Assembly (NCBI GenBank): GCA_052327205.1
Contig: JBMRGM010000043.1
Location: 30,380,001 to 30,444,000 of the forward strand
Origin: Somniosus microcephalus
Lineage: Eukaryota
Direction: 5' to 3'
DNA length: 64,000 nt
This document shows, piece by piece, positions 13,277 to 61,396 of this stretch. The notes beneath the pieces were generated by a model. It was given only the letters and a program-made list of their open reading frames with translations. It made no database searches and was not told the DNA's origin. The stretch's first letter is position 1, and every line of letters begins with the position of its first letter. The translations under genes and the position numbers were made by a program.

Positions 13277-14385
13277 AACATAGAAACATAGAAGATAGGA
13301 GCAGGAGTTGGCATTCGGCCCCACGAGCCTTCTCCGCCATTCAATGCGATCATGGCCGATCAACCAAATTCAGTACCTGGTCACTGCTTTATCCCCATAC
13401 CCCTTGATCCCTTTAGCATTAAGAAATATATACAACTCCTTCTTGAATATATTTAATGAATTGGCCTCTACTGCCTTCTGTGGCAGAGAATTCCACAGGT
13501 TCACCACTCTCTGGGTGATGAAATTCCTCCTCATTGCTGTCCTAAATGGCTTACCCCTTATCCTTAGAATGTGACCCCTGGTTCTGGACTGCCCGACCAT
13601 CGGGAACATTCTTCCTGCATCTAGTCTGTCCAGTCCCGTCAGAATTTTATAAGTTTCAATGAGATCCCCTCTCATTCTTCTAAACTCCAGCAAGGACAAG
13701 CCCAATCGACCCAATCTCTCCTCATACGTCATTCCTGCCATCCCAGGTATCAGCCTGGTGAATCTTCGCTGAACTCCTTCCATGGCGGGTTAGGTTGATT
13801 GGCTATGATAAATTGACCCTTAGTGTTAGGGGGATTAAATGGGGATAAGTTTTGGTGTAGGGGTTACGGGGATTGGGTGGGATATGTGTCGGTGCAGGCT
13901 CGATGGGCCGAAATGGCCTCTATCTGCACTGTGGGGTTTCTGTGATCTGTGATCCTTCCTCAGATAAGCTGACCAAAACTGCACACAATACTCAAGGTGT
14001 GGTCTCACCACGGCCCTGTATAACTGCAGCAAGACATCCTTGTTCCTGTACTCAAACCATCTCGCTACGAAGGCCAACATGCCAATTCCCTTCTTAACCG
14101 CCTGCTGCACCTGCATGCTTACCTTCAGCGACTGGTGCACTAGGACACACAGGTCTTGTTGCACTTCCCCTTCTCCCAATCTATTGCGATTCAGATAATA
14201 ATCTGCCTTCCTGTTTTTGCCACCAAATTGGATAACCTCACATTTATCCACGTTATATTGCATCTGCCACGCTTTTGCCCAATCACCCAATCTCTCCAAA
14301 TCAGCCTCGAGTTTCTTGGCATCCTCCTCATAGCACACACGCCCAGCAAGCTTTGTGTCGTCTGCAAATTTGGAGAGATTACATC
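13277..14385 (-). mobile_element. 5'-truncated CR1 with a nested HE1-like SINE 3' fragment (~13785-13951, +)
   Basis: ORFs 13370-13783 and 13835-14338, catagaaa-type tail at 13277. The insertion is absent from the paralogous introns at ~19350 and ~56040. Confidence 0.92.
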
Positions 14386-15202
14386 TAGAGAATAGCCACG
14401 ATGGGCGCCTATACTTAATGGTAACCAGCAGCTGTATTGTGGATCACTGGAGCAGGAAGCATTATTATGTTTTTATGGATTTCCTCTCGCTGCTTTGTTT
14501 GCGGAGAACTTAACCTGATTAATTTATTCTGCTGAAACCGGAATTCCATACTGGGCAAGGCTTAATTATCAGCAGGAATATCCTCCCTTAGATCTTTTCT
14601 CTTTTAGCCATTCTCTGCTGCGTCTTCACCATCTAGTATGACCAGGGTGAACTCCACCAATATCCACAGCTACATTGCTCTGTCCCTAGCCAGCCCCCAG
14701 CTCAGCTGTCACCATCTGAAATTAAAAAGACTCCCGATTCTCCCGGCCAGGGTGATGGATCAGTGATGATATAACTCACCCGTTGCGATGATAAGGGCAT
14801 CCAACGGCATCAGCGTACAGATTTTATTAGGAGCCTGTGATTAAGCTTATGCCAAACAGGTAAGTGGAAAGGGCAAAAGAGAGGGGAGAGGAGCACACTG
14901 CTTATTGTGTCCTTCCACACAGTCCATCAGCGGACCCACCACTGAATTTTCAGGAGTACCTGCTGGTGCATTTTGTCAACTCATCATCGTGGTTGTTAGG
15001 GAGAGAGGCACCATCATATTTCGGTTTAGTGGGGGAATACTCCCCGTCAGCCTCTTGATGTAACAGGCTGGTAATGGGAAGCCGCCAAATTCTCCTCTGA
15101 GGTGGGGCGGGAGGAGAAAGATAGCTGCCAGTGCGTGCACGGGAGGAGACCCACCCTGGGTTAATTATTGGCTAAAGTAGCACGGTGTTAGACAGCCATC
15201 AT

Positions 15203-15921
15203 GGGCCAAGTTTTCCAACCCCCACGGGTGCATACGAGCTGTGTACTCACCCATAGGGGCCTTGCAGGTACCGATTTCAGGTATGCGCTTAAAACCGGCA
15301 CCTGCGATCTGTCAAGAATTCTCTTGACAGATGATCCACTTGCCCAAGAAAAGAGCCTCTGTGGCTGGAGAGTTTGCACAACTTCCGGCAGCTGAAAGGC
15401 TGTAGAATTCGTCCGACTGGTAAAAGTAGGCATAAGAGTGATGAAAGTTAGAAATAACAAATTTGATCACTCACTTATAAGTTAGAAATACTCTTGAAAC
15501 GGTAAATTATTTATAGCCCAGTAAAAATGTTTAATTTTTTTTCTATAAATTATGTTTAAAATATTTAATTAAATGGAATTTTAATTCATTTTAATTTTGT
15601 AATTTTAAATAGTTTATTTACTGTTTTAGTGTGTTTTTAAATGTGGTTCCCAATCATACTTTTGACAGTTCAGTCCCTACAGACCTGTCAAATGTATGAA
15701 GGGGGATTCCCTTCTTTGATTTGTTCGCCTTTCTCACGTGATCCCAGGAGCGCTTGCAAACCGTATGTGCCCCTGGGATACCTGGGCCTCTGCGCATTTC
15801 CAACAGGAGAGGCCCAGGATCGGAAGCCTCGGGCTCTCCAAACCAGCAGGTAAGTTCGTAGATTTGTTTCCGATTGGAGGCATCTACCGGCAGGAAACCG
15901 CCGAACGGAAATTCAAGGCCT
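15203..15921. mobile_element. MITE-like non-autonomous DNA element
   Basis: Absent from the paralogous site at ~20172. Imperfect ggcc..tttcc / ggaaatt..ggcc termini, GC-rich arms and an AT-rich core; resembles 25241-26006. Confidence 0.65.
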
Positions 15922-16057
15922 CTATGACCTAACACGAACAAATTCTTCCGAGCTCACACAGCTATGCATAAATGTGGACAGATTCAGAACCTCTCGGACC
16001 TGTAATATGGATAAATATCCAAGAGCGATATCGCCAATTGAAATATTGCCGACGTAC

Positions 16058-16315
16058 CTTGAACGTGAACATGAACACTTCGTGATTCCTTATTGCCAAC
16101 AGTGCAATGCTATGATCTGCTGTCTTTTGAACTATTCACTCTAATGCTATGCAGAGCTCTCCGATCGGTCAACTTCATTGAGTGAATCCTTATATTGCCA
16201 TTGTAAAAGCCAACATCTTTATGCCTCCAATAATGCATTCTGAACCAACAATTCAGATTCAGAACACCTCCTTCCAAAACCGAAGGTGGGTCGACATTGA
16301 AGGCCACTTTGCGAT
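16058..16315 (-). pseudogene. Gene A Ig exon D3b with an in-frame TAG
   Basis: 258 bp with intact splice sites. TAG at 16110-16112 replaces the Tyr of DSxSYHC (TAC in D3a). Confidence 0.85.
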
Positions 16316-17387
16316 CTAATGTTGGGAACAAAATGTGGCGGTTTTAGCTTAACAAATGCTTAACTCAAACTGAGAACTGCTCCACAACAGCCCGTATACA
16401 TTGGACACGAGAAAACCCCAATCCCAACTCCAGGCAAGTCTGGGAAAAAGAAGAACAGAAAGGAAACAGCAGTCGGGTGGTGTTGAATTTACTGATGGTT
16501 GTAAATGGGGTTTATTGATAATCTATCCTCGTGCAGCAGCTCCCCACCATTTGGCCCAGCTCTTCTTAGTTTGATACACTGAAAATAAACTATTTTGGGA
16601 ACGACGGTTAAGCAACGCCCGAGCACATAAGGGATTAGAAAATCTAGCACTAATGATCACTTATTGCTTACCGAACTCACAGTAAATGTACTCCATTGAT
16701 CTCAACAGAAGGAAACTCCACCGGATTCTGTGAGGTGCATTCCATCCCCCCCTCCGACCAGATTATGGAAGGTGTGCATCCAGCTCCTTTTGCTTTCTGA
16801 GCCTCCCAGAGGGCACACAGTGCCCGAGTTGCGTTGTGACGATAAGGAAAGAGTGCGCCAAACCTTCCTGGCCTCAGCTACATGCCTGATTCAGCTACAC
16901 TCTCTCATCCATTAGCAAGAGATCTGCCTATGTTGGGACGGGCTTACGCTGGTTTCTGTAGGGCAGTGACAGGCGCACATCAGTAGGCCCGAGGGCACTG
17001 CCACTAGCCTCATGTTCACTGTAAAATTCTATCTAACTCCACCGCTCCACCTGGCAAATCATTCTATGTTCCAGCACTCGTCTATATAAAGAACGTCCTT
17101 CTAAGCGCTACCCTCCCGCTTTAATGATAATTATACATTACTGATCCCTCCTTCCTGTCTTCGCAATCAGAGAAAATATCTTTCCCTAATCGCCCAATTT
17201 CGGAATTTGCATTTAAAAACCACTAATGAAATAACCTTTAGCTATGGCTAACCCGGTAGTGTTAGTCCCAATACCTCAAGTCTATCCTGGTGAATACACT
17301 TTTACTTCCCTGGTGTACGCTACCCGTATTCTATGATTTTCATGTTCTCTTTAAAAGTGTTATAACATTGTCTTAAATTGTACTCAC

Positions 17388-17666
17388 ATCTGACTGAAAC
17401 GGAAACCTGATTACTCAGTTTCTTCACCTCACTGTTCAAAGTAGTTGCTTCGCTCCAGTAATTCCCCGAATCGTCCGGCCGAGATGTCTTCTTGATGTAA
17501 TAGTTGTTGTCTGCCGCTGAAGTGAGAGATTGTCCATCTTTGTAAAATACGAGTCTCAAGGAAGTATTGGATCGAAATATTTTAACCAAACAGGCGAGAT
17601 TTAACTGTTGGTCCACAAATAATTGAGCTCCAGACTCAGCCCTCAGTGTAGGTATGGAGAAGACCT
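17388..17666 (-). CDS. Gene A Ig exon D5a, open frame but F-strand Cys lost (DSGNYWSEA)
   Basis: 279 bp, splice sites intact; YWS where D5b has YRC. Confidence 0.7.
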
Positions 17667-18995
17667 CTATAAAATAGAATAATGCATGGATTTTCCGGGT
17701 TCCACATCCATCACAGACTTAACAATTTATGTGTTTGGACAACTCACGTTAATGAGCAGAAGAATGAAAAGCCGACAGCAGCTCAGAGAAAGAGGCTTTC
17801 AATAATCCTTGATTGCGCTCTGCCACGGGAATATACAGTTCGGGACATTGACACAGTTATCACTTGAGATCTGAACATCCTGTCGTGGCTAGATTTGGGA
17901 ACAAGTTAACCCTTCCATTGAAATGAATGGAAGAAACATCCTGCGGGTCCTCTGAGATTATCCCCCAACACCCCAACCCCACAACCCCATCATTTGAACT
18001 CTGCTCTCAGCCCAGGCGATGCTTTACTCCCGGGTCTTAATTACTGAAATATCCTTGGTCGTTGTGGCAGCACCTGTAAATTTTAGGACCTTCATGTTAA
18101 ACGCTCAGCTACTATCAATACAATTTTTCTGAAATCCACTGCCGACACAGGATTGATAACTCCCACCTTGTTTTCAGATTGCCTGCTCCATTGAAAATGC
18201 GAAGCTCGAGTTATGATTGGTCGGATCTAAAAGATTGGGAAGGAATCCCCGGGCACCAGAGGCACAGACGTTAGTGACCTCGGGCATTTTGCATCCACCG
18301 CTACTGAAATTGGAGGGAGTGAAAATTCAAGTTTGTCTGGGGTAAAAAACCGGTGGTAGCAGATTGCTCACCCTTTATAAACACAGGCCAATTTCAATTC
18401 AATTTTCTGCCGTTCAGTTTTAGCGCTCTCAATGTTAAATTTTACCCCCGAGTTTTCAACTATAAAAGATTTCCGGGGCTAGTAAGTGGTAAGGCATTGG
18501 CTGATTAATCACCCTGCTGTTCCTGACCAGGTTCTGCTCGCTGCTGAATATGCCAGTTAGAAACAGGGAAGGTAACTTTACCTTGGGGTTATGGGTTAAA
18601 ATGCACGGCATCGAATCTTGCACCAATTCTACACTACGCGCGATATTCCTGTCCATTGAAGATCAATGGATGCAAAAACGGTCGGGACATATAATGGGAG
18701 ATAAATTCAATATCGCCCAATTCCACACTATTTCAGGAAGCTACTATTACCCACTGGGAGTGGGCGCTGGTCCTTAAACGTAGCAGCTTTTAAAACCTCG
18801 GTTTTCAGCAAATGTATGGATAGTGTAAGAACCAGGTGGCGCTGTCATTTAGCAGGTTGCATTCAAAATTGATTATTACGTCATAAACTTGTGGGTAAAT
18901 CCTTTACCAGACTGGATCCCTCTCGTATGTTTATTTAAGTATAATCCCCTGAAGAATTCTTTCATTCAACTATAATTACAGCTGGCTGTCCTTAC

Positions 18996-19258
18996 CTTTA
19001 ACCGCAATGGAAACCTCATCACTCTTTTTCACAACGCGGTAGGAAATATTTGCTTCACACAGGTAAGTCCCCGAGTCCTTCAAAGAAGCTGTCTCCGTGA
19101 GCTTAAATGTGTTGTATGAAGTCAATATCAGAGCTTCGCCATTTTTGTAAAATGAGTATTGAAGCCCATTACTGTACGGCATTGTTTCAATAATATTGTT
19201 ATTGTTTCAAATATTTCAACTGCAGGGTCAGTCCTCAGTTTAGGTTTGAAGAAGAGTT
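18996..19258 (-). pseudogene. Gene A Ig exon D4a, frameshifted
   Basis: 263 bp versus 279 in D4b. The GDQLKFIC segment is replaced by a local attgtttcaa duplication, which removes the first Cys and shifts frame to a TGA. Confidence 0.85.
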
Positions 19259-20307
19259 CTGTGAAAGCAGAATCTGGATTGACAGGTAACATTTCCTATC
19301 ACTGAGTTAAACAGACAGCAGAGCTTTTTAATAGGAGCAAGGCAATACCGCAAATCGCCACGAGGGGCGTCTACAATTAACGGTAACTAGCAGCTGTATT
19401 GTGGAACACTAGAGCAGGAAGCATTACTATATTGTTGTGGAATTCCTCTCGCTGCTTTGTTTGCGGAGATCTTAATCTGCTTAATATAAAGCGCTGAAAC
19501 AGAAATTCCAACCAGGACAAGACTTATATTTCAGCAGGGATCCTCCCATAGCTCTTTTCTCTTTTAGCCATTATCTGCCGTGTCTCACCATCTACTATGA
19601 CCACGGTGAACTCCACAATTGTTCGCAGCAAAATCGCTCTGTCCCCAACAAAGCCCCCTGCTCAGTTGTCACCATCTGAATTTACAAAGACTCCAGATTC
19701 TCACGGTCAGGGCGATGGATCAGTGATGATATAACACACCCGCTGCGATGACAAGGGCATCCAAGGGAATCTGCTCCCATAGTTTATTAGGGGTCTGTGG
19801 CGAAGTTTGCGCCAAACACGTAAGTGAAAATAGCAAAACAGAGTGGAGAGGAGCACACTGCTTATTCTATCCTTCCACAATGTTCGTCAGCGGACCGACC
19901 ACTGACGTTCCAGGGTCTCACGAGGACCTGCTGGTACTTTATGTCAAATATACTCATCGTGCTTATTAAGGACAGAGGCAGCATCAAATTTCGGTTTCGT
20001 GGCAGAAAACTGCCCGTCAGCCTCTAGATGTCACATGGTGGTAATGGGGGAAGCCGCCAAATTCTCCTCAAAGGTGGGTCGGGAGGAGAAAGAAATCTGC
20101 TGGAGCTGGCATGGGAGGAGACCCGCCCGTGTTAAATATCGACTAAAGTAGCACGTTGTTAGACAAACATCATATGACCTAACGTGAACAAATTATTCCG
20201 AGATCACAGAACTATATATAATTTTGTACAGATTCAGAAATTCTCGGACCAGTAATATTTATAAATATTAAAGAGGGATATCACCAATTGAAATTTTGCA
20301 TACGTAC

Positions 20308-20562
20308 CGTGAACGTGAACATGAACACTTCGAGAAATTTTCTTGTCAATAGTACAATGGTATGATCCACTGTCTTTTGAACTATTCACCCTAATGCTAT
20401 GCAGAGCGTTCCAATAATACAACTTCATTGAGTGGATCCTTCTATTTCCTTTGTAAAAGCCAACATCTTTCCACAAATAATATTTTCTGTACCGACAATT
20501 CAGATTCAGAACATCTCCTTCCAAAACCGAAGGTGGGTCGACCTGGAAGGCCACATCGCCAT
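20308..20562 (-). CDS. Gene A Ig domain D3a (intact; FcR/FCRL D2-like)
   Basis: 255 bp, cattag / G|gtacgt; VAFQVDPPSVLEGDVLNLNC..GFYKG..DSGSYHC..VHVHV. Confidence 0.9.
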
Positions 20563-21539
20563 CTAATGTTGGGAACAAAATTTCGTAGTTTAGTTTAACA
20601 AATGATTAAATCAAACGAAGAACTGCTTCGACAACAGCCCGAATACATTGGACACGTTATATAATCCCAATCCCAAATCCAATCCAGGCTGGGGCAAATA
20701 CAGAACAGAAAGGAAGCAGTGGACAGTTGCTGTTGAATATACTGATGGTTCCAATTTGGGTTCATTGGTATTGCTCTCCTCCTGCAGCACTTCCCCACCA
20801 TTTGGCCCAGCTACTCTTAGGTTGGAACACTGAAAATAATCTACGTTGGGCACGGCGGTTAAGAAACTCATAAGCAGAAAAGGGAATAGAAAATCCGGCA
20901 CAAAGGATCACGTATTGCTCACTGAACCCGCCGTATATGTACACTTTTGATTTCAAAAGAAGGAAATTACGCCGGATTTTTTGAGGAGCATTCCATCCAC
21001 AGCACCAGATTCTGGAAGGAGTGCATCCAGCTCATTTTGCCTTCTGAATCGGCCAGTGGGCACAAGGTCCCAGAGATGCGTTGTCAACATAAGGTAAAGA
21101 GTGCCCCAAATATTCCAGGCCTCAGCTATAAGCCTGAACCAGCTACAATCTTCCATCCATTAGCATCAAATCCGCCTATGTTGGGATGGTCTTACGTTGG
21201 TTTGCATACACATCAGTAGGACCGAGATCACTGCCAGGAGACTCATGTTAACTTTGAAATGGGGCTTTCTGGTTGCAGTCACAAATTAGCAGTTCAAAAT
21301 CTTCCAATATCTACGATCGACAGGCAGGAGTTTGGGGTGTGAGAATTTAATTCAAATAACTACCTACCTTGTTATCACTTTAGGATGCCCTTGGATCCTC
21401 ACAAAGACTTTGGTTGGCAGATTAAGCGGACGAAAGCTCCACCACCAGTGTCCTTCAAGAGCCCTCCTCTCTTGGGGTCCGCCATTGTAAATGAATAGGA
21501 AACTTTTGTGGAAGACCAGAAACATCCCTCCTGACTCAT

Positions 21540-21765
21540 AGTACATTGTACACGATATTTACAGCAGAGAGCCAGGCCATTCGGCCTAATAGGTCCATGC
21601 AGGTGCTTATCTTCCACACGGGTCTCTTCCCAGCCTTCATCATCTACCCCATCAAGATATCCTTCAATTCCTTTCTCGCTCATGTAATTATCTAGCTTCA
21701 CCTTAATTGCAGTTCCCTCAACTACTCCCTGTGGGAGCGAGTTCCACATTCTAACCACCCTCTTA
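21540..21765 (-). mobile_element. CR1 3' end fragment
   Basis: VRMWNSLPQGVVE..KLDNYM motif and the ggccattcggcc 3' UTR. Confidence 0.75.
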
Positions 21766-22144
21766 TTACTAGCCCATATGCAGGCCTAATGATATGAGCA
21801 CGGGGATGCCCATGCAATCGCCCAGCAGCGTGAGAGCACGGAAATGAAATGCAGATGAACTCCAACGACATTTCCCGATAATTCTCAGGAGCAACCGAGA
21901 AGGAGACATGCACTCCTACGGATTCATGGGGCCCTTACAGTTAACGCAGTGGCTGATTTTGCCACATGCGACCCAGAAGCTTGCCTACAATGCACAGCTT
22001 GGAATGTTTTCCCAGTAATTGCAAATATTTACCAACTTCAACAAAAATTGTCGAGCCAAAGAATGTTCTTCGCATCGTTTTCCATCTTTCAGCAAATTAA
22101 CAAGCAGCAACTTTGGGAGGAAAACAGCAAAGCCAGCGACCAAC

Positions 22145-22405
22145 CTGTTACGGTGAGGTTTACTTCCTGCGAGACCCACTTCCTGTAGCCTATTTTGCAT
22201 TCACACCGATAAGATGCCCCATCTGCAATTTCTGCTTTAGTTATGATGTACTGAGATTGAGAACTTCCATGTATTATCTCTTCTTTCTGATACCACAGGA
22301 AGTATCCTCTCCCTTTCTGGTCAGACACCAAACAATTCAGGATAATTCTTTCACCTGACAGCGTGGCTCTTGGTTTTACTTCAAGAGTTAAAATCATATC
22401 AGAAG
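22145..22405 (-). CDS. Gene A Ig domain D2
   Basis: 261 bp, ttttcag / AG|gttggt; GERIILNC...FLWYQ...DGASYRC. Confidence 0.92.
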
Positions 22406-22989
22406 CTGAAAATATGTAAGAAATATTAAGTAAGTACAAATTGTAATATGTTAAACTACAGGTATGACATCCTATAGTATATTTCCATTAGAGTGCATCT
22501 ATAGTAATCACTTCAGTAAAGAACAACAGGCCTATAACCCGAAAAGCTGTAGTGACAAATGTGGCATTAGAAAGTCACGTGTCCCTTCTTATGTTCAGCT
22601 GATGCCCCGTATGTTGTCCTTCAAACGTTCATCAAATAACTTTTACTTCGAAACCCGATTCTACAAATCAGCAACAAACTCGGCACTCTTTCAAGGAACG
22701 ACTGGTATTTGTTCATTGGGTGTGGTGAGACTAAAGGAGCTGGGATTGTTCTATTTAGAGCAGAGCTGGTTGAAGGGAGGTGCGGCAGAATGGTATCATT
22801 CATCCCAGTGTCCACTTGGCAATTTTGCTCAAGTAAGTAATATGTTTGATACACTGTCTCACAATATATACTGAGAGTCCTCTTTAAAACAGTAAATTTT
22901 CGTGACAAGAGCTGAGCTGACTATGGGTCAAAGTTCAGCGACTGATGGTGGCCACTTCCAGCGGTTTGACTCAGCAGCCAATAATCAAC

Positions 22990-23350
22990 AGTAGGCGTGG
23001 CTCAATCGCCTCTGCGACAATAAGGCGTTGGTTCGAATCCCACACCAGAGACTCCCGGTGTCGTTATTGCAGGAAACGGTTCCTTTCCAATGAGACATTA
23101 TACTGAGGCCCCATATCCCCACTTAGATGGACGTCAAAAATCCAACAAAAATAATTGAAAGAGCAATCATTAGAGCAAGCATAGAAGTGTAAAATGATCT
23201 GGTCATTATTACAATGCTCTTTGTGGGAGCTTTGCTCTGCCCGAACTAGCTGTCACTTATCTCACGTTACATCAGTGACTATATTGAAAAGTAATTAATT
23301 GTCTGTGCAGTGCAATCGGAGGTCGTGATAGACGCTATATGAATGCTTAT
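22990..23350 (+). mobile_element. Degenerate tRNA-headed Deu-domain SINE (SacSINE1-like)
   Basis: gtggctca A-box-like, ggttcgaatccc B box, Deu-like 3' (gtgggagc..cagtgact..cgctatatgaatgc). Confidence 0.6.
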
Positions 23351-23402
23351 TATTCTGTCTTTTGTCTATTTTCTATGCTATTAAGTGTCAAAGTTCACCT
23401 AC

Positions 23403-23654
23403 CGATTGTGACCACTTCCAGAGCCTCACTCCTCTCCGATTTGTTTGACCATACATCACACTGGTAAGAGCCTCCACTGCTGCTGTCTGCTAGTGATTCA
23501 TAAAACTCACTCTGAGGTTCATGTAAATGTATATTATTTTTTAACCAATTAGTGTAAATAGCTTTGCCACTGTATCGACACTGCAGCTTAAATTCCTCTC
23601 CTTCCTTTACCACACCACTGCTGGGAAAACTAACCAGCACTTCCGGCCCAGGAG
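23403..23654 (-). CDS. Gene A N-terminal Ig domain D1
   Basis: 252 bp, tctttctgcag / G|gtaggt; KEGEEFKLQC..NWLKN..GGSYQC. Confidence 0.92.
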
Positions 23655-23989
23655 CTGCAGAAAGACAATAAATGGAATTTATGATTAGAAATTTGGAAAC
23701 TTCCAGTCTTTGCACTATACACTGTAGTAAGTACAGTGGGTAATTTCTACTCAGTGTCCCAACCAGGTGCGACATATCGGGTGTCTATTGATCGAAATTT
23801 CTATTCATGAAGTGAAATTAACTTGCTGAAATCGGGTGGTAACGGCCTCGACATGGGGTCGGTAGACTTATCATCCATTTAACGCCGATACTCTGCCCCC
23901 TACCATTTTCACAAGGACCAATGTTTGGGCGGCACAATCGCCTCCCTGTATCAGGTGGTAGGCGTTTTAAATCTATCAATTAACTTAAA

Positions 23990-24570
23990 TCTTAACAGTG
24001 TCTCCTTATTTACTGTATCAAAACCTTTCATGATTTTGAACACCTCTATCAAGTCACACCTTAAACTTCTGTGCTCAAAGGAGAACAGCTCTCGTTTCTC
24101 CATGCAACTGAAATCCCGTGTCCCTGGTGCACTTTTAGTAAATGTCCTTTGCAATTTCCAGCATTAATTTGCATCAGCCATGTGTCTGCCCATTTCACCA
24201 GTCTGTCTTTATCCTTCTGATGTCTGTTTCTATCTTTCGCATTGCTAGCTACATTTCCGAGCTTCATGACTTCTGCAAGGTTTGTAATTGTACCCCTGTA
24301 TACCCAAGTCCTAGTGATATATAATTATCAGACAGAACAGAGGTCCCAATACAGACCTCTGCGAGACACCACTGAATATTCACTTCACAACCAATCTCTG
24401 CTATTTGTCTCAGTCCATTTCTTATCCACACTGCCACTTCCCCTTATTCACATGGATTTCAATTTTGCTAACAAATCTGTTATGTGGAACTTCATTAAGC
24501 GCTTTTTGAAAGCCTATACACAACATTAACGCACTAATTTCATCAACACTTGCTGTTACTTCATCAAAGA
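23990..24570 (-). mobile_element. Old degenerate CR1 fragment
   Basis: QRTFTK..LRCDLIEVFKIMKGFD and DRLVKWADTW motifs. Confidence 0.75.
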
Positions 24571-24950
24571 ACTGTTTTTTTATCAATCCATATAATTACT
24601 CATTTATTATTACTCGCTGCCAATCCTCAGGTGACTGAGCTGGCAGTTACCGAGACCAATTTATAGGTCACTTTGTCTTTAACATATTGTGGTCGACATT
24701 AAATTTGGTGCTGAGGCTTAAAACTGCGGTTCTGATTGGCCGACCGTGAGAGAAACCGCCCACTTTACATTCCCACTGAATCAATGAAAATGATGATCGA
24801 ATGTTTCTCTTAACTTCGCGTATCCAGGTGGTCAGTTTTATGCTCGGGTGAACAACTGAAAATTACTCAATTGTTGGATTGTTACTGTCCTTTAGCTATA
24901 AATTGGAAGCGTTCATTCCACAAACCGAATGGACATTATTGTCATCATAC

Positions 24951-24980
24951 CTTGTGTGGTCGCCTGATGAGTAATTTGCA
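24951..24980 (-). CDS. Gene A 30-bp leader mini-exon S2 (xQITHQATTQ)
   Basis: Acceptor ttgtcttctctctttcag, donor AAG|gtatga, phase 1-1, joins D1 in frame, conserved in three copies. A split leader with a mini-exon is typical of FcR/FCRL/LRC genes. Confidence 0.85.
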
Positions 24981-25240
24981 CTGAAAGAGAGAAGACAATG
25001 TAAAATATGTTTCATTATCTGAGACCATCTTCAAGTTTGACCTAAGCTGCTAAGCTGTAATGCAGCTGACTAGAGGGAACACCGAGGGGGTGAAATTCGA
25101 CTTTGGCAGGGACATAAAATAGGCGGTACCGCATTTGCCGCCAGTCTATACGTGCCGCCAGGTATTCAGTTCAGTTGATGTGAATGTAAATAATAATACA
25201 TCGAATTATGTCGATTGACCCTCTCACGAACAAAGATAAG

Positions 25241-26006
25241 GGCCCAGAAATTCGGGTCGTGGGCTTCCCGCGGGTGCAAGCCCCCGACCTGCACTTACTT
25301 TGCGCGCCTGACGTTGAGCTGTGGGCCCGCGTGGAATTCCGATCCTGGGCATGCTCCAACTGCCGGCGCAGAGTGCTTGCGTATCCCAAGGGCGCAGTTA
25401 GTTCAATGCATTCCCTCGGATCACGTGCGCCATGGAGAGCCAATTGGAGCAGGGAATGCCCATTCATAAGTTTGACAGGAAGAGCTGTCATAACTTATCA
25501 ATACTACGGGACCCAAAACATCACTAAATCTTCAAATGATTTTAAAAATTCGTCACAGTTTTTTAAATAAACTATAAATTACATGAAATAACTATTTTAA
25601 ACAATAATTTACATTTATGAAAAGAATAATTTTATTTTCTAACGGGTTTAAAAATAAACTTACCTTGCTTTAAAGTATTTTAAAATAATAAACCTGAGGA
25701 AATTTTTTTTTAATTTTAGTTAATTCACCGCACTTACCTTGTAAAAAGCAGGCCTCACACCTGGTTTTTAACGTGTAACTTCTGGAGACATACCCTCCTG
25801 GGAAAATCTGCAAAATAAACGTAACTTGGATGCGCATGCGCAGCTTCTCCCGTGCACGCTGTCAACCTCTGAATCCCTTCTTTCGGGGGAACAGAAGCGC
25901 CGGTTTCCCCCGCATACAAAGTGCTTGCACTAAACCGGCACTTCCATTGGGCTTACGGGAGAGTACCCCATGCGTGCTCACCCGTGGAGAACCGAATTTA
26001 CGGGCC
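25241..26006. mobile_element. MITE-like DNA element with terminal inverted repeats
   Basis: ggcccagaaattcgg ... ccgaatttacgggcc termini; empty site at ~34560 and ~61657. Confidence 0.75.
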
Positions 26007-26314
26007 AAGGTTTTTTTTGAAGATCCTAATGGTCTGAGGACTACATGGAAAAGTTGCTGCCAGATGAAAGGGAACTGACAAAGATTGAAATGAATCATTG
26101 TTCCGAGAGCCACTGAGTGTGTTTGCTCTGTCATGGAGAAGGAAATTTTACTTTAAAATTTGTGATAGGCCATTTAAAATGGAAATGAAGAAGCACCTTT
26201 TCACACAATGCGTAGTGAGAAATTGCAACTCAATCCGCTAAGAACGCTGTGCAATCTGCGCATAAATTGGAACTTTGATTATGGAGATCAAGATTGATTT
26301 TAGTTAATAAAATA

Positions 26315-26650
26315 AAGACGTGCATTTCTATAGCGCCTATCACAACCTCAGGACTTCCCAAAGCGCTTTGCAGCCAAAGGTGTACTTTTGAAGTGTAGTC
26401 ACTGTAGGAAACATAGCTGTCAATTTTCACACAGTGTTGATAATAATGACCAGATAATCTGTTTTTGTTATGTTGATTGAAGGACAAATATTGCCCAGGG
26501 CTCCAGGGATAATCTCCCCGAAGGGGCCTCGCATTAACGTATCATCTGAAACACGGCACCACCGAAAGTGCAGCACTCCCACAGCACTGCACTGGAATTT
26601 GATCCCAGATTTTTGTGCTCAAGTCTTTGGTCTGCGACTTGAATCCACGA
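26315..26650 (-). mobile_element. Deu-domain SINE (SacSINE1/AmnSINE1-like), truncated
   Basis: tgcatttctatagcgcc..ctcaggacttcccaaagcgctttgcagcca..tacttttgaagtgtagtcactgt matches my recollection of the Deu 3' consensus. Confidence 0.7.
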
Positions 26651-27254
26651 ACATGAGCAAAGGGGGGTCATTGGAGTAGAGGTACAGTTCAACCGTGATA
26701 TAATTCAATAACAGAGCAGCCTCGAAGGGCTGAATGGGCTACTCGTTTTCATATGTTTCCATCATAATTTAAAACATCTTTATCCTAATCAGCATGTCAA
26801 GTTATGACTGGGTTGCAAATGTTGCTCGTGAAGACAGTACATGATCAAGCAGCTGGCTGCAGGAAGATTTTTTCACGCCTCAGACCAGAGGAATCACACT
26901 AATTAGGCAATATCTGATGCTGGTTCAATGATCAATTCAGATGTCTCTGTATTTCATTGTTTAACATGTAAAACCTGGGCCTTCTGTCCAGTTTGGATTC
27001 AATAGGGTGAATGTTTCAAGTATTCAATTTGGCCAATTATTTTCACAAGGTGGGTGTTATGTGCTGTGCAACAAATGAAACATGGGGGTGATTATAAGCT
27101 CAAGAACAAACAGGTTACGAATTACTAATTATCATTTAAGAATTAGCGCATTAAGCTGTGGAACTAGCTGTGGCTACCATGGTCCCACAACTAATGGCAT
27201 GTTATTAAAATAGTTGAGATTATGGTGAAAGAGTCGGTGGTACACTAAAGATGC

Positions 27255-27335
27255 AAACCCTGTTGTTTGTTCCTGTTTTCTGCTCTTGTGGTCCAGTGGT
27301 TAACAAGACAATAGAGTGCTGACGTCAGCATCTCA
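27255..27335. promoter_or_regulatory. Candidate enhancer/promoter module: CRE palindrome with ETS-like and RUNX-like sites
   Basis: TGACGTCA at 27320-27327 inside tgctgacgtcagca; ttcctgtt (ETS core on -) and tgtggt nearby; module conserved in all four duplicated units. Confidence 0.45.
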
Positions 27336-27654
27336 CAGCAAGTCAGTTTCAATGGCATTTGACCATAATCAGTCACTTCTGTCTAAATTCAAGTAAATTG
27401 CATCAGACATTAATATTAAAGATCCACAATTATAAAGTTCGCTGCCATAATCCTTGAAGCCGCCAGTTTAGGTCAAGTTAAATCAAAGTAAATGTTATCT
27501 CTTCAGCTTTGTTAACTCCAGGTTAGGCAGCAGATATTAAATGAGCCTGAAATTCAAAATGGTGCCCGGTTAGCACATTGCTGTATTTTGTTCTCCCTTA
27601 CACCAGGAATTAAAAAAATATAATTATATTGCTGCATTGAAAAAAATCCTAATG

Positions 27655-28320
27655 CTCTATCTCTGTCTCGCTATGTCGCTATCTGTGTGTCTCTCGCACT
27701 GCATATCTCTCTTTCGCTCTCTCTCGCTTTCTCTCACGAAAACTTTAGCCCACCGCCTCTCTGAATGTTTGCCTTCTGTTTGTCTGTTTCTCGCTCTCTC
27801 TGTCTCTCCCTCGCTGACTCAATCTCTCTCTTTCAAACTTTGCCAGTCTTCATCTGTTTGCCCGTAGATCCCTCGGCCTCACCCTCTCTCTGACCTACCT
27901 TATGTCAGTCTCACTTTCTGAATGTCACTCTCAGTTGCTCTGTCTGTCAATTTGACGCTCTCTCTCTCATTGACTATCAGTGTCACTGCATGTTGTTTCA
28001 TTCAATCTATGTCTCTCTCACTCTGAGTCTGCACCTCCTTGTCTCTCCCTCATTTTCTCTCTCTCTGCCTCTTTTTGTGTGTCTCTCCCAGTCATGTGTG
28101 TCTATGACTTGCTGTATCTCTTTGACTCTGTCTCTCTCGTGTGTTAATCTTCCACTTTCACTCTGACACATTGACTCCATCTCTTTCTCTCACTTTTGCT
28201 CTCTCTCTCTTTGACTCTATCTCTGCCTCGGTCTCTCTCCACATTTTTTGTTAGCTGTGTGTGTGTGTATGTGTGAAAGTTTCTCCCTCTCTTTAAATGC
28301 ATCTATCTCCCTGTCTCCCT
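27655..28320. repeat. CT-rich low-complexity tract
   Basis: Degenerate (CT)n/(CTGT)n; copies at 31240-31400, 36305-36960 and 63385-63560. Confidence 0.85.
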
Positions 28321-28428
28321 ATAGCAGATGTTAAACAAGAAGCCAGCCTGGGCCACACAAAATCATGAAGCAATGATACAGACCAAGATTAACAGCTAGC
28401 CACAGAGACCAAGCACAGCAAAGCTCAC

Positions 28429-28498
28429 CGCATTTATTAATAGCATTTAGTAAGAGTGAAACAACTGGGACAACGCTGACACTTGGTATGAATTGCAT
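28429..28498 (-). CDS. Candidate first coding (leader S1) exon of gene A: MQFIPSVSVVPVVSLLLNAINKC
   Basis: ATG to GCG|gtgagc is 70 nt (phase 1), in frame with S2. ATG, length and donor are conserved in four copies; hydrophobicity is only moderate. Confidence 0.5.
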
Positions 28499-29829
28499 AA
28501 AAATGTTAATTCCTACTTATAAACAAAACTACAAGAATTAGAAATTTGAAAGCAGTTTCTGCAGGTGAGGCTAAATAATTGGTAAATTAAAAAATATTAG
28601 GCTGTTTAGAAGCAATCCTATTGAGCTGCAACCTGTTATAGCAAAAGTGATCTCTTAGATGAGCGGAAAGATCCTGTTACCTTGAATAATCAAACTTAGG
28701 TCTGTTGTTGCACTAAATTCTGATTAAAACAGAAACATAGAAAATGACATTTCAACGCATTTTAAATGAATGTCTTCCTTTCAGAAACTGTCAATATCAA
28801 TTTAGTGCGTCGCTGACTTTTACAGAATGAGCCTTATTATTCTGATTGTGGGTCCGGGGTGAGTGACGCAGATTTTCAAAGGCACTGGCAATATTTGAGA
28901 ATCACTTACAGAAAATCAGAAGGCGACAGATGTGCTTCATTTCGAAAGCGGGGGCTCCAAGCAGAAGCTCCTTTCCCTCTGTGAAAAGGCTCCCTTCGTA
29001 TCAGCTGTTTTCAGTTCCTTTTATCTGGAAAGTGAAATTAAAAATCATACAGCACAGAAGGAGGCCATTCGGCCATGGTGCCTGTGCCGGTTCTTCGAAA
29101 GAACTTGCTAATTGTTCCCACTCCCCTGCCATTCCCCAACATTGCATTTTTCCACTTTGCAGACAGTCGCTCGCCTTTAAGAGAGCCAAGCCAATTTTTA
29201 AAACTCATGGATCATAATTCTGTTTATTTCAATGCAGCCTCTATTTATTCAGATTTGGGTTAACATTTCCACAGAGAGCCTGAACAGATCGAATCCATCA
29301 AACACAGAGCAACCTATTCCCAAGCGCATGGCTCCGCTTCCCACTCCTGCACCCAACAAATGTACCCGCCCACAATAAGCCGCTGACACTGTTCTACTTC
29401 TTCAGTACCAAACGCCCGCACGCGCAGATCCCGAGTCTGTACTTGCGGGGAATGAGGAGACAGCGGCTGGAGCGAGGTCCCCAGGAGCAGTCTGCAGCTG
29501 TGGAGCTCACTGGCCATGCTCCACGCGACTGCGCACTGAGATCACTATGACTTCTGACCAAATTGGAGAAAAGGGGAACTTAAACTTAACGTGATGATGA
29601 TTCCAACCTAACGCTGAAAAGTGAAATGAGCTCTTGCAATTTTAAAATAAATTCTAAACACAGGCTTATCCAGTGTATCTGCTTGAGCTGCCCAATCTAT
29701 TCCGCCTATCCGACTCACTCCAGGTAACCGTTAACTTTGCTCTACCAGAACAAATATTCTAATTATATTTTAACATTAATTTTTTGACTCTAGATAAGTT
29801 TACCCATCTCATTGCAGACAACGAAAAAA

Positions 29830-46152: not shown

Positions 46153-47219
46153 AATAAGGCTTACACATGAAACTGTCCAGAACCTAATCCAATTCTTCAG
46201 TAGCTGAAATGATACATCCAGGTTTATAAGCAGACAATTAGTACCAATACAGAAACTCCAGGCGAAATCAATCAATCAGAAGATGTCCCGAAACATCTGG
46301 GAGGTAAGCAGTTATTAATCTGGCGTATACAAGCGAAATGTCCAAGCGATCGAAAGTCATTTAGGTCAGAATGAAAATATTTCAGGCACAGTCAGGAAGC
46401 TAGTTTACCAAAAGTTTCATTAGATCATTGGCCTCATGGCATCTACATCCAGAAACAGATGCTGAAGTTATTCAACTTGGGCCCCTTATTCTCTGTGATG
46501 AGGCATCAACAGCTGTATACAGCAATGAAATGAATCAGGTTCTGTACATAGAGGCTCTTGTGAAGAAAAATCCAAATCGTGGTTGAATCGTGACGATTGA
46601 CAGTTTTTGCTTTGAATGAACATCACGAACTGAGGTGCTCCCCAGCAATATTGTTCTTTAGTCACTTGTAGGAATAACATGCTTGCTTCAACTATTGCCT
46701 TCAGAATTTTCTGTAGATTCCTGTAGACTCCGAACATCTGTATTTATCTTCTTGGTGCTCAGGCTCTCGATTGCCTTCCAGTTGCTGATGATTCATGTCA
46801 CATGAGCCTCGTTACAGTCAGAAGATTCAAACTTTCCATGAAAGGAAATTAACATTCTATCAATGCAAAATTCTCTATTGTATTGCACATTTTGAGTCCA
46901 TTTCTGTTACTCGTTTGATATGTTTTCACAAGGAATTAATTATCAGATCGAATATAAAGATTAAGAAAAAGATATCTAAGGACAGTAAGATCACTTTTAT
47001 TTCGTTCGACCGAGTGGTGGAGAAGGAAATCCATCTCGGCTCTTAAGAGTATCCAAGTAAATTAACTGCAATATTAGTATAATTTAACTTTCTGATTCTT
47101 TACATAAGGCACAATTTTATTCTGTAGAGAGCCATCATATTTCACTCAGGATTTACACAGTTTCGCAAGCAACAGGTGTCCATAAGAGTACGACTGTAAT
47201 ATCAGAGATTAATGACGGT

Positions 47220-47920: not shown

Positions 47921-49329
47921 ATATCCAGACAGTGAAGAAGAAAACCTAACGCTAGATTGTGCTGAGTGTACGCAGAGAAGGAAATAGAAACTCTATGTGG
48001 TTTTTCCCAATGTCTCGTCGTAACGTTGGTGGAATTTCCGTGGAAAACTTGCAGAAAGGGTGATCTCTCTGGAGTTGTAGCCTAACTTCTGCCGAAGTGA
48101 TAACGATATTGGAGAGAACTTCCGATGGAAATGTTACCCCAAACAATCTACGGTTCATCACATGCTGATCAGGTTGAACTTACCGGTGCTTTGAGCTGAT
48201 CGCACACCTGCAGACTCGGAATTGCCTGCAGAATTCTCTTCACTTGGAGGTCTGTTTCTAGTTGCCTCCCTAAGTGCGGAAATGTTCACAGAGATTAAAG
48301 TTTAACAATAATCGTGGACAACGGAAATGTTACTTTCAAATAAGATGAAATAGTAGAATAAATATCAAAAACAAGCAAGCAGTTTACAAGAGACATAACC
48401 TTAAACTTGCAAGTCCACATCCATTGGACCAGTTGAAGAAGCTCAAGGTAGACAGGTTGCCGATCCGTGGCACTTTCCTCCCCAGGGGTCTAACGTCGTT
48501 CTCTCAGCAGATCCTGAATTACCTCAGATATTTTCCAGATTTCCCTTATCATGACTCACTTCAGTAGAAATTGGTCCTTGAAGACACCGCAAAGCGAAAT
48601 GTAGCGAATCGGCTGTCCATTTAGAAATCCTCTAGATCATTTTTGATCCATTGAAATTTATGGAAAATAAAATCGGTCGAGTCCAAAATGTGCAATAGAT
48701 TCGTTAGTGCTCGCTGTGTGCTGCGGCCCCAAATTAAGTTATACTGATTATGGTTGAAGATTGTAACGTAGTAAGAGTGTCTCCTGGCGGGGGGTATATG
48801 ATCCACATTACTGCTGGGCAGTAAGAAACAGCACTCGCCGGATTTTCATAGCTTCGAAATTGTTTCACAGGATAATCGGGCGCAATCTCAATTGGACGGC
48901 TGACCAGAAATGGCAGTTTATGCCCGAGCGGCAAGTTGGAAATTTGAAGTTAATATTCACTTTTACCGTCCAGCAGAATATGGGTGGTAAAGGCTCAGCC
49001 GCTCGTCTTACACTCCAGCCGAATTTGGAAATGGAAAGTAGGCTGTGTGTAAAACTGGCCGGCCATCCCTTACCACCTGCTTTCAACTCCATTGGAAAAG
49101 CAAATTTGACCCATTGTGTCCTAAATGGAAGGGAGGATTCAATACCAAATAAAAGGAAGAATGTATCATTGATATTTGGGTATCAGTTTAAAAAAAAAAG
49201 TGGGTGCAGTGTTGAAAGTGAATTAGGAACTGTAGAGAATGTTGAGATATATCACCACCGTGTAACTTATAAATCACGGGAGATAACCTTAAAATTATAG
49301 TTGGTATTGGAGCATGTCCTTTGTTAAAA

Positions 49330-51604: not shown

Positions 51605-51635
51605 CCAAACGATTGTGAAATTCTTGAAGAATTTT
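51605..51635 (-). CDS. Gene B first cytoplasmic exon (ENSSRISQSFG)
   Basis: ttttatccag / GG|gtaagt, 31 bp, paralog of 7947-7977. Confidence 0.78.
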
Positions 51636-52159: not shown

Positions 52160-52261
52160 CTTGTTTCTTGTTGGGACGATTGACGAGTACCAGTGCAATC
52201 AGGGCAGCAACAAGAAAAAGTGTAAAAACTGAGGCTCTGATCGCGGTTGTGTGAATCTGCA
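52160..52261 (-). CDS. Gene B transmembrane exon with Arg (VQIHTTAIRASVFTLFLVAALIALVLVNRPNKKQ)
   Basis: ttattccag / AAG|gtgagt, 102 bp. AGA at 52236-52238 where gene A has ACA (8581-8583). Confidence 0.9.
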
Positions 52262-52454: not shown

Positions 52455-52641
52455 GTCTGACTGAAACTGAAACCTGATTGTTCAGTTTCTTCACCTCGCT
52501 GTGCAAAGTAGTTGCTTTGCCAAGGTAAGTCCCCGAATCGTCAGGCCGTGATGTTTCCTTAATGTAATAGTTGTGGTCTGCCGCTGAACTGGAGTGAAAT
52601 ATTTCAACCAAACAGGCGAGTTTTAACTGTTGGCCCTCAAG
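52455..52641 (-). pseudogene. Displaced, broken D5-type Ig exon of gene B
   Basis: EGQQLKLACLVEIF then an internal deletion, YLG in place of YRC, 5' end cut by CR1; lies downstream of D6. Confidence 0.8.
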
Positions 52642-52645
52642 TAAC

Positions 52646-53122
52646 TTATCTGAGGAAGGATGTTCTCCTTATCTGAGGAAGGATGTTCTCGCCATGGAGG
52701 GAGTACAGCGCTGATTAACTGGACTGATACCTGGGATGACAGGAATGCCGTATGAGGAGTGATTGGGTCAATTGGGCTTATATTCACTGGAGTTTTGAAG
52801 AATGAGAGGGGATCTCAATAAAACGTATAAAATTCTAAAAGGACTCGACAGATTAGATGCAGGAAGGATGTTCCCGATAGTCGGGGAGTCCAGAACCAGG
52901 GGTCACAGTCTAAGGATAAGGGGTAAGCCATTTAGAACAGAGATGAGGAGGAATTTCTTCACCCAGAGAGTGGAGAACCTGTGGAATTCTCTACCACAAA
53001 AGGAAGTTGAGGCCAATTCATTAATTATTTTCAAGAAGGAGTTAGATATGTTGCTTAAGGCTAACAGGATCAAGGGATGTGGGTAGAAAGCAGGGACAGG
53101 GTACTGAATTTGGATGATCACC
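52646..53122 (+). mobile_element. 5'-truncated CR1
   Basis: ORF 52802-53086; 23-bp tandem duplication cttatctgaggaaggatgttctc at its 5' junction. Confidence 0.9.
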
Positions 53123-53620: not shown

Positions 53621-53908
53621 CTAGCACTGCAACCGTAACAAAATCGCTGTGTAGAGGACGTCTGGTCGCTTCGTTTGAAACACCACAAATATAATCCCCT
53701 TGGGTGCTTTGGTTGACTTTACCGATTTGGTAAGTAATTTCGGTTAGGTTGGACTCCTCTCGGAAGAGTTCTTTATTTGGGCCTTTGTAGAATATGTAGG
53801 TAATCGGGGTAGAACCGTTGAACACTGAGCAGGTTAACGACGCTGTGTCACCTTCCAGTAACTCTTTACCAGGGCTGATTGCCAGTTCCGGTTTGGACAC
53901 TGGGATTC
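53621..53908 (-). CDS. Gene B membrane-proximal Ig domain D6 (intact)
   Basis: 288 bp, tttacag / AG|gtgagt; 15 aa differences from gene A D6 by manual count. Confidence 0.92.
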
Positions 53909-55670
53909 CTGTAAATATAACCATTTGTCAATTACATTGCTTTTGTGGAATTTGTAGTATTACTTTCAAAGTGAAATAGGGCTCTCATCAAAATAAAGAG
54001 CCTCGTCATTTAGGTTACCACTCCAATCTTGGGCGCCCGTGCCCCTCTCCTACTTCAGCAGTCAGTGGAATTAATAGAGGAAAAACTGATTCTGGAACTG
54101 CAATGATTCCTATTGCAATCCACTAGTGGCCACCCTACTATCTCTGGCCTGGTACTGATTCCTACTAACTCTGCACTATTCCAGTACCATAAACACTATC
54201 TACCTAAATGCAATTGCATCTAACTCCACTGCTCCACTTGGCCAATCATTCTTTGTTCCAGCAATCCTCGAATAAAGAACGTTCTTCTAAGCTATCCTCC
54301 CGCTTATATTGATAATTATACATCAATGATCCCTCCTTCCTGTCTTCGCAATCAGAGTAAATACCATTCCCTTATCACCCTATCTCGGTCTTATCATGTA
54401 ATAAACAGTAATGAAATAACTCTTAGCCATGGCTACTCCGGTAGTGTTCGTGCCAGTAGCTCAAGTCTATTCTGGTGAATAAGGTTTTCCATCCCTGGCG
54501 TCATCTGGTGAATCAACGCTTCCCGTTTTCTGTGATTTTACTGTTCTCTTTAAAATGGAAGGCAGGACATTGGACACAGTATCTGTGGCCTCACGAATGT
54601 GTTGTATAAACATGCTATTATTTCCTTTCCCCTGTTGTCTATGCGACAATAATTTAGTTATTTATGTATTCAGTGCATGTTGAACATATAGGTAAGGCCC
54701 TTACTTCACGGATCAATCCCCGTGTGCGAACCTTCACATTTTAGGACATTCATGTTAAACGCTCAGCTATGGACAATGCAATTCTTTGAAAATCCACTGA
54801 TGACACAGGATCGATAACACCCACTTGGTGTTCTGATTGCCTGCTCCTTTTAAAATGTAAAGATAGAGTTATGATTGGCAGATTCTAACTGAATGCAATC
54901 GAGAGGCCGGACATCAGAGGCTCAGCCTTCAATAGCCTCCGGCGTTTTGCCACCCCGTCATCCCCCTCTACTGAAATTGGAGGGGTGGAAATTCAAGTTT
55001 GTCTGGGGTGCAAAACCGGTAGTAGCTCATTGGCCATACTATCTACACACAGGTGAAATTCGATTTTCTTGTCTGCCAATTATCTACTGCACTCTCCAAG
55101 TTAAATTTTAGCACCGAGATTTCAGCTAGCAACGATTGCCGGGACTAGTAAGTGGTAAGGCACTGTCTGATTAAACACCGTGCTGTTCCTGACCAGGTTC
55201 TGCTCGTTGCTGATTCAGTCAGACAGAAACAGAGGAGGTAACTTGACCTTGGATCCATGGTGTAAAACGCGTGGTATCGAATCTTGCACCAATTGTACAC
55301 CACGCACGATGTTCCTGTCCAATGATAATGATGCGACGCAAACACGGGAGGGACATATAATGGGAGGCAAATTCAGTATCGCCCATTCGACACTATTGCA
55401 GGAAGCTAATATTAGCCACTGGGAGTGGACACTGGTCTTCAAACGTTGCAGCTATTACAAGTGTGGGTTTCAGTAAATGTATGGATTTTTTATAGAACCA
55501 GGTGGCGCTTTGATTTAAACAGATCACATCCAAAATTGATTTATTATGTGATAAAGCTGGGAGTAAATCTTTTTCCACATTGGATCCCTCCCGTATATTT
55601 ATTTATCTATAATCCCCTGAAGAATTCTTTAAATGAAAGATGAACAGTAATTACAGCTGGTTCTATTTAC

Positions 55671-55947
55671 CTTCTACCGTAATGGAAACCTCATCACTCT
55701 GTTGTTATCACGGTGGTAGAAAGCATTTGCTCAACAAGGCTAAGTCACCGAGCCCTTCAAAGAAGCTGCCCCCATGTGCTTAGAGTTGATGTATGAATTC
55801 AACTGCAGAGCTTTGCCATTTTTGTGAAATGTGTATTGAAGCCTAATATTGAACAGCATTGTTTCAATAAAAAAATGAATTTTAACTGGTCTACCTCAAA
55901 TATTTTAACTGCAGGCTCAGTCCTCAGTTTAGGTTTGGAGAAGAGTT
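55671..55947 (-). pseudogene. Gene B D4 pseudo-exon
   Basis: Acceptor AG mutated to CG (55948-55949), 277 bp, first Cys codon lost in a T run, frameshifted. Confidence 0.85.
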
Positions 55948-56735: not shown

Positions 56736-57002
56736 TTTTTATGGTGATGGTTACATTCGGGGAGATCCACTTCCTGTAACGTATTTTGAGTTCACACCGA
56801 TATGGTGCCGTATCTGACTCTTTTGCGTTTTCTATGGTGTACTGAGATTCGTCAGTTTCTGCTATTAACTGTTTATCTCGATACCACAGGAAGGGAAAAC
56901 CTTCTCTCCATTTCCAGGAAGGCATCAAACATTTCAGGATAATACTGTCACCTGACAGTGCGGATGTTGGATTCACTTCCAGAGTTAAATTCATATCAGA
57001 AG
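56736..57002 (-). CDS. Gene B Ig domain D2
   Basis: 267 bp, ttttttttgcag-type acceptor, A|gttggt donor; GDSIILKC..FLWYRD..DTAPYRC. Confidence 0.9.
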
Positions 57003-58818: not shown

Positions 58819-59067
58819 CAATGGTGACTAAATCCAGAGGTTTACTCTTCTCAGAGGAGGACCAAGGCACTGAACACTGGTAAGACGCTCCACTGCGACT
58901 ATCTGCATATCTTTCAAAGAACATATATTTAAAATGAATATAAGTCTCATCTTTATACCAATAAGCCCAGTTATTCATGCCTCTGTATCGACACTGCAGG
59001 TAAAATGTCTCCCCTTCTTTCACGATTCCATCGCTCGGATTGCTAAGGACTACTTCTGGGACATGGG
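58819..59067 (-). CDS. Gene B N-terminal Ig domain D1
   Basis: 249 bp, ttcattctacag / G|gtaggt; KEGETFYLQC..YWYKD..SGASYQC. Confidence 0.92.
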
Positions 59068-61366: not shown

Positions 61367-61396
61367 CTTGTGTGGTCGCCTGATGAGTAATTTGCA
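61367..61396 (-). CDS. Gene B 30-bp leader mini-exon S2
   Basis: Same exon sequence as 24951-24980; tcttctctcttgcag / AAG|gtatga. Confidence 0.85.

Follow-up and report, generated by a model that had tools for sequence, protein, structure and literature searches.

Gene B of a shark Fc receptor-like cluster: an arginine-class receptor gene, probably made by a recent deletion-fusion and probably activating

Genes A and B and their family

The window is a stretch of 64 000 nucleotides of Somniosus microcephalus DNA (GenBank assembly GCA_052327205.1, contig JBMRGM010000043.1, positions 30 380 001 to 30 444 000). Positions given below without a contig are counted from its first letter. Models of two genes, A and B, both on the minus strand, were built on splice signals and homology.

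The model of gene A comprises two leader exons, six Ig exons, a transmembrane helix and a tail with tyrosine motifs. The leader exons and the Ig exons occupy 10458..28940; the six Ig exons are open, and three further ones interspersed among them are degenerate. The tail exons carrying the ITIMs VTYSLV and LVYSEV lie at 4791..4847 and 3979..4044, and an additional Tyr-motif exon is found about 2 kb to the left of the window. Between the two genes the leader/upstream block is repeated several times (24000-38700). Extra leader exons occur there, first-leader exons near 31987 and near 37559 and one second-leader exon at 34299-34270; none leads to Ig exons, and these orphans are remnants of truncated genes. 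At 38894-39386 two arms of 236 nt, 97% complementary and 21 nt apart, form a near-perfect inverted repeat.

Gene B is modelled as an open frame of 374 amino acids with two leader exons, three Ig exons, a helix and a 59-residue tail lacking tyrosine. The first leader exon (31 nt) falls approximately 125-155 bases past the window end and the second (30 nt) at 61367..61396. The Ig exons were placed at 58819..59067 (its end set by the observed donor site), 56736..57002 and 53621..53908, the protein sequence of the last being identical to the matching domain of three ITIM-bearing genes. Downstream of the transmembrane exon, tail exon 1 (51605..51635, 31 nt) is homologous to tail exon 1 of gene A, tail exon 2 (48184..48269) has Ser in place of the Tyr of the family EYAxV motif, and the last exon, predicted from splice signals and conservation, runs to the stop at 47153..47193 without encoding Tyr. 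All nine exons have GT-AG ends and an open frame, and the tail exons form conserved islands within diverged introns. The second tail intron contains three diverged tandem copies of a unit of about 400 bases (49271-50687). A further Ig exon at 55670..55947 (minus strand, ends approximate), common to gene B and the ITIM genes described below as donors, has CG at its acceptor, a frameshift and a stop, and is predicted to be skipped. A frame-broken pseudogene, against which the preliminary description had cautioned, is ruled out by a model that stays open throughout. Read depth over the gene B exons was zero in two RNA runs bearing the species label of a DNA run that matched (tissue unlabelled, a quarter to a third of each read), and a search of RNA data sets with an Ig exon returned no RNA run among its matches.

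The best PDB match of Ig exon 3 of gene B was FCRL5 (E 6e-32); for the homologue P0003 it was again FCRL5 (E 2e-59), followed by FCRL4 and FcgammaRI. The best database relatives of the last Ig domain, at 55-66% identity, were proteins of sharks and rays with the automatically assigned name Fc receptor-like. With Ig domains closest to FCRL/FcgammaRI, genes A and B are classed from these comparisons as FCRL-like. The leader is divided between exons of 31 and 30 nt; a 30/21-nt split-leader rule is described for part of the FcR-like family in PMC2413239. A search with PF06214 for linkage to SLAM/CD2 genes was blank here, as it was in the controls. Some members of the FCRL family bind immunoglobulin.

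The searched genome amounts to 6.4 Gb. At least 46 transmembrane exons of the family were found on contig C43 by merging two genome searches, each of which scored 40 of 46 candidates; these copy counts may be inflated where the assembly lays near-identical copies in tandem. The family occupies three places on C43 (21.5 Mb, 25.3-25.5 Mb and 30.3-31.9 Mb). Near-identical genes are common to the 25.3 and 30.3 Mb blocks, and the segment at 30.38-30.64 Mb is inverted with respect to the rest. At three loci (L098, L099 and L100-L101) tail exons persist without a transmembrane exon, each through a separate deletion; the receptor cluster is prone to deletion. More distant Ig exons, 33-40% identical to the last domain of gene B, lie on C21 (69.79-69.91 Mb) and C28 (42.24 Mb), possibly marking other FcR-like or PECAM-like loci.

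Arginine and threonine classes of transmembrane exon

The transmembrane exon of gene B (52160..52261, minus strand, 102 nt, AG/GT ends) is paralogous to that of gene A (8505..8606, minus strand). The preliminary description had read TTAI-R-ASVF in gene B against TTAI-T-AAVV in gene A, and a weaker basic cluster after the helix of gene B; direct reading bears out both points. The translations are ..TTAIRASVF..NRPNKKQ for gene B and ..TTAITAAVV..KLRKKKQ for gene A, with the codons AGA at 52238-52236 and ACA at 8583-8581, respectively. Three basic residues follow the helix in gene B (NRPNKK) and five in gene A (KLRKKK). Over the 102 bases, the two exons show 22 mismatches.

The copies on C43 comprise 21 exons with Arg and 25 with Thr at this column. 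The codon is AGA in 21/21 Arg exons and ACA in 25/25 of the others found, and since it is constant within each class the difference is not due to chance. Consistently across all 46 copies found, the two classes can be told apart by 11 of 102 bases and by six of 33 residues together with the split first codon; nucleotide identity between Arg and Thr exons is 78%. The gene B exon is present identically in 11 genomic copies. The arginine occurs in 21 copies from seven lineages and is not peculiar to gene B, which rules out a private mutation of that gene.

Tail exons were sought in the 10-20 kb downstream of each transmembrane exon, with (I/L/V/S)xYxx(I/L/V) as the ITIM consensus. An ITIM exon follows 25/25 Thr exons (24 of them in the downstream DNA examined, that of L061 counted by genome position) and 0/21 Arg exons. 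The LVYSEV-type exon has 27 genome matches, of which 25 follow Thr exons, two are remnants without a transmembrane exon and none follows an Arg exon. The last exon of the Arg class shows the reverse distribution: a homologue follows 19/21 Arg exons and 0/25 Thr exons, these 19 and one remnant accounting for its 20 genome matches. Arginine thus tracks tail type, the association for which the preliminary description had proposed a tally across paralogues. The Arg class is not purely ITIM-less, because SxYxxV is kept in tail exon 2 of 10/21 copies from six lineages; it is also present in Thr-class and outgroup genes. In the gene B lineage 11/11 tails lack Tyr. Motif counts exclude the tails of L060, L061 and L075, whose exons were counted as present. 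In a tree of the helix and the first two tail exons, the Arg and Thr classes form two clades (100/100) separated by one change. As the class split is a single branch, the perfect agreement of Arg with tail type represents one evolutionary event and not 46.

Neither class is free of damage. Splice sites are damaged in the Arg copies L046/L047, L045 and L043/L044; L049/L050 yielded no last exon in the DNA downstream of the transmembrane exon; and the Thr gene L062 contains stops. In L053-L056, the ITIM genes described below as donors, tail exon 3 is duplicated, with Tyr replaced by His in the second copy, and the membrane-proximal Ig exon, intact in other sharks, is frameshifted. Three Arg genes (L091, L103 and L092) have an Ig exon broken by a LINE, with an intact acceptor and a stop soon after; these might produce a secreted form or require exon skipping.

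For polarity, 17 distinct related helices from other species were used as outgroups, ten of them named as sharks or rays. Database proteins with homologous transmembrane and tail exons were obtained from Heterodontus, Heptranchias, Mustelus, Scyliorhinus, Carcharodon, Cetorhinus, Narcine and Pristiophorus. Unlike gene B, none of the 17 distinct transmembrane segments retrieved from such Fc receptor-like proteins has Arg, and nine of the 17 have Thr at the column; Arg is hence the derived state. The Arg genes form a branch (100/99) in the outgroup tree, where monophyly of the Arg and Thr genes with respect to other sharks gave a p-AU of 0.30. Arg and Thr genes have their flanking introns and tail exons 1 and 2 in common. 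On these comparisons the Arg exon is read as derived from a Thr-class exon and as having arisen once. The earlier proposal of descent from an inhibitory type of ancestor agrees with this polarity and with the ITIM exons of the Thr class. Its further step, that gene B originated by a single base change, is not supported: the Arg branch is long and also carries an altered helix end, loss of the ITIM exons and gain of another last exon, and gene B acquired its Arg by fusion with an older Arg gene. Relatives of the Arg class elsewhere were sought by a profile search for shorter proteins, with a P0058 transmembrane-tail query and among the 150 best representatives; none appeared in this database, which has few shark models.

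The alternative that the Arg segment is a shark homologue of the ancient NxxR type (LILRA, FcalphaRI, Xenopus XFL), later homogenized with inhibitory genes, appears very improbable. The register is equal, with 'IR' at the outer edge, and NxxR, an Asn three residues before the Arg, is present in 2/21 Arg copies; gene B has Thr there. Against this stand the 78% nucleotide identity to the Thr exon and the introns and tail exons held in common. The YT-xxN/DYT motifs and the acidic C-terminal end are absent from Arg-class genes. According to PMC2413239, Xenopus XFL Arg segments are NxxR and share a single exon with a short tail, whereas the shark Arg exon is closely derived from its inhibitory counterpart, mostly without Asn, with its 59-residue tail on several separate exons. 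A 38-residue frog NxxR segment, a weak query, gave no match in the shark genome.

Helix placement was based on Kyte-Doolittle windows alone. The highest 21-residue window opens two residues before the Arg in gene B, so that AGA (52236..52238, minus strand) encodes its third residue, and likewise two residues before the Thr in gene A. The best 21- and 23-residue windows both take in the Arg; the best 19-residue window begins directly after it (2.53, versus 2.49 with Arg included). By this hydrophobicity measure the Arg is predicted to sit at the outer edge of the helix, as the preliminary description supposed. It precedes 18 uncharged residues. Counted from it towards the inner side, the first polar residue comes at a distance of 19 residues, compared with 17-20 in eight Arg-bearing FcR-like database proteins, three of them named as frog (P0125 was left out of this comparison). 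A PDB search with the helix gave a chance match only. The transmembrane segment shows no sign of special constraint: pN/pS of the exon is 0.96 among the seven Arg lineages and 1.94 among the Thr lineages (few sites). As 17 of the 33 residues are invariant in the Arg class and pN/pS is about 1, the invariance of the Arg itself is not special.

These values bear on two other accounts of gene B. Were the Arg to lie outside the bilayer, gene B would be an expressed decoy with no adaptor and no signal, weakening inhibition by competing for ligand. We consider this unlikely: the 18 uncharged residues would suffice for a short helix, the best 19-residue window leaves the Arg out, and the absence of NxxR, a pN/pS near 1 and a tail without Tyr are all compatible with it, but the register agrees with frog Arg-type segments, the two longer windows include the Arg, and the joint appearance on one branch of Arg, loss of ITIM exons and an altered helix end is the pattern of activating paired receptors. 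Alternatively, the Arg class may consist largely of decaying DNA that tandem duplication has carried along, with gene B an unexpressed by-product of deletion. The same pN/pS, the dead donor or acceptor sites of several Arg lineages, the many dead Ig exons, the three remnants lacking a transmembrane exon and the two RNA runs without exon reads (uninformative, as their tissue is unlabelled) fit such decay. It is nevertheless rather improbable in view of the open frame and GT-AG ends of gene B, the absence of stops from the transmembrane exon in 21/21 Arg copies of seven lineages and the tail exons conserved amid diverged introns; moreover, pN/pS is not low in the Thr class either.

The junction in gene B

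From 64000 (or the start of the DNA compared) to 53118, gene B is 99.1-99.6% identical in DNA to four ITIM genes, and there the identity ends; from 53120 on it is 96-97% identical to three native Arg genes. The partners overlap by a three-base microhomology, TGA, at 53118..53120 (minus strand). They are a cut repeat in an intron of the ITIM donor and a cut LINE end in an intron of the Arg parent. The LINE and SINE labels of the repeats are those that we presume, with reverse-transcriptase-like frames aiding the former. A LINE fragment inherited from the Arg parent follows at 52661..53117 (plus strand), and beyond it lies the 3' remnant of the LINE-broken Ig exon (52455..52660, minus strand), its acceptor deleted by the fusion. 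A native Arg gene retains that acceptor and has a stop after it, at the edge of the LINE; with the acceptor gone from gene B, both of its dead Ig exons lack one.

The coding exons show the same division. The last Ig domain of gene B has the same protein sequence as in three ITIM genes and is 99% identical to the domain of the fourth, but only 73-74% identical to that of five genes with exactly its helix exon, and a last-Ig tree places gene B with the ITIM donors (100/100). DNA identity to the four ITIM genes is 95-100% over the Ig exons. Ig exon 1 diverges most (95-97%, versus 98-100% for the other exons), a hint of fast change in the distal Ig domain; it is also six bases shorter than in the donors (58820-58900).

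The repeat runs unbroken across the junction point in the gene A intron and in the ITIM donor, and a native Arg gene has the complete LINE end, inside an Ig exon. Gene B is therefore the product of the join, and its being the parent is ruled out by the same observations. It is likely a young hybrid, with what the alignments indicate to be the ectodomain of an ITIM gene on an older Arg transmembrane-and-tail module.

The junction is present in 6/11 copies having the identical helix exon. These six differ pairwise by 5-19 substitutions in 5.3 kb, and each adjoins a gene-A-type gene or its remnant; their 3' parts form no resolved clade. One of three hybrids examined and three of four donors contain a 727-base piece that includes a fourth Ig exon. 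Its presence and absence in both hybrids and donors suggests that exchange has continued.

A real Arg class with a junction or copy number produced by the assembly, through haplotypes laid in tandem or a mis-join, is quite improbable. The tandem blocks are near-identical, and no contig bridged the junction in four sets from two other samples; those samples diverge by about 0.5% from the window, and a gap in such contigs proves nothing. The join itself is base-sharp and non-homologous, and its position is shared by six copies distinguished from one another by substitutions and by the 727-base indel segregating in the donors, which argues against an artefact.

Predicted coupling and its significance

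A search of the genome with PF11628 identified two exons, on C40 and C14. The best PDB match of the C40 exon, which is on a contig other than that of the receptor cluster, was FcRgamma (E 4e-12); the C14 exon, as the other zeta-family member, is taken as CD3zeta. The Asp is kept in both exons and lies 16 residues from the inner side, the Arg of the receptor being three residues farther out (19). Near-identical ectodomains with differing signalling ends, ITIMs in the inhibitory member and a basic transmembrane residue without tail Tyr in the other, give the gene B lineage the pattern of paired receptors.

Published accounts describe several comparable systems. Xenopus XFL genes likewise form a large mixed FcR-like cluster, have two leader exons and divide into an Arg class and an uncharged class whose tails have Tyr motifs; the Arg lies at equal depth, and receptors of the Arg kind either require FcRgamma or are raised by it (PMC2413239). 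Activating KIR have a transmembrane segment that, a basic residue apart, nearly matches its inhibitory counterpart and is read as derived from it, but with a central Lys and DAP12, compared with an outer-edge Arg in a shark receptor of FcR-like and not LRC family (PMC6557307). FCGR2C is also a hybrid in a duplicated block, joining an inhibitory ectodomain to an activating signalling end (PMC6563257). Unlike gene B, it arose by unequal crossing-over of homologous sequences and carries an ITAM itself; gene B has a 3-base microhomology between unrelated repeats, and its signalling would require an adaptor. In FcalphaRI (CD89), LILRA, GPVI, NKp46 and PIR-A the Arg is near the helix top, and its pairing with both Asp residues of the FcRgamma or CD3zeta dimer is proposed (PMC13107469, PMC6557307). 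CD89 mutagenesis shows that the Arg position matters (PMC13107469). That group differs in being of LRC family with NxxR and in having its binding demonstrated by experiment, the shark receptor being known from sequence. By these likenesses gene B would work in the manner of paired receptors and FCGR2C, as an FCRL-like gene, and is not of the NxxR type.

The proposed course of events has four steps. By the tree and outgroups, a Thr-class, ITIM-bearing ancestor gave rise to a single Arg lineage (ACA to AGA), which also lost a mid-helix Pro/Ser, acquired a remodelled helix end and was left with no ITIM exons and with a different last exon. In this assembly, the join at 53118-53120, likely a recent deletion, attached an ITIM gene's 5' block to the Arg module and removed the acceptor of the LINE-broken, stop-bearing exon. 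The hybrid exists in six non-identical copies in this assembly. Finally, hybrid and inhibitory donor would bind the same ligand, the Arg would pair with the two Asp of the adaptor and the signal would be opposite to that of the donor. By analogy with the systems above, we give slightly better than even odds to this last step, in which the receptor activates and opposes an inhibitory twin with the same ligand. For the reading as a whole, gene B as an Arg-class receptor likely activating through FcRgamma/CD3zeta and likely made by a recent deletion-fusion, we estimate a probability of about 0.55.

A 2014 survey recorded neither FCRL genes nor FcRgamma in cartilaginous fish (PMC4016189). No account of an activating class or of FCRL pairs in sharks was found in the literature searched, most subscription journals lying outside that search. 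A wider proposal is offered tentatively, at somewhat less than even odds: sharks may have invented an FcRgamma/CD3zeta-coupled activating class independently, from their own ITIM FcR-like genes and without an NxxR exon, in convergence with the outer-edge Arg of LILRA, FcalphaRI and XFL, and may re-use it as a portable module grafted by deletions between repeats onto inhibitory ectodomains. Gene B would then be a young, possibly still polymorphic, activating twin after six-fold amplification.

If the coupling holds, the earliest-branching jawed lineage would possess paired FcR-like signalling, and an Arg at the outer edge would be a solution reached at least twice. The cluster offers the same Ig domains on opposite signalling ends, a single codon difference to probe and both adaptors in the genome. 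Within one locus, an activating twin would be seen to arise in two ways, by slow divergence and by sudden fusion.
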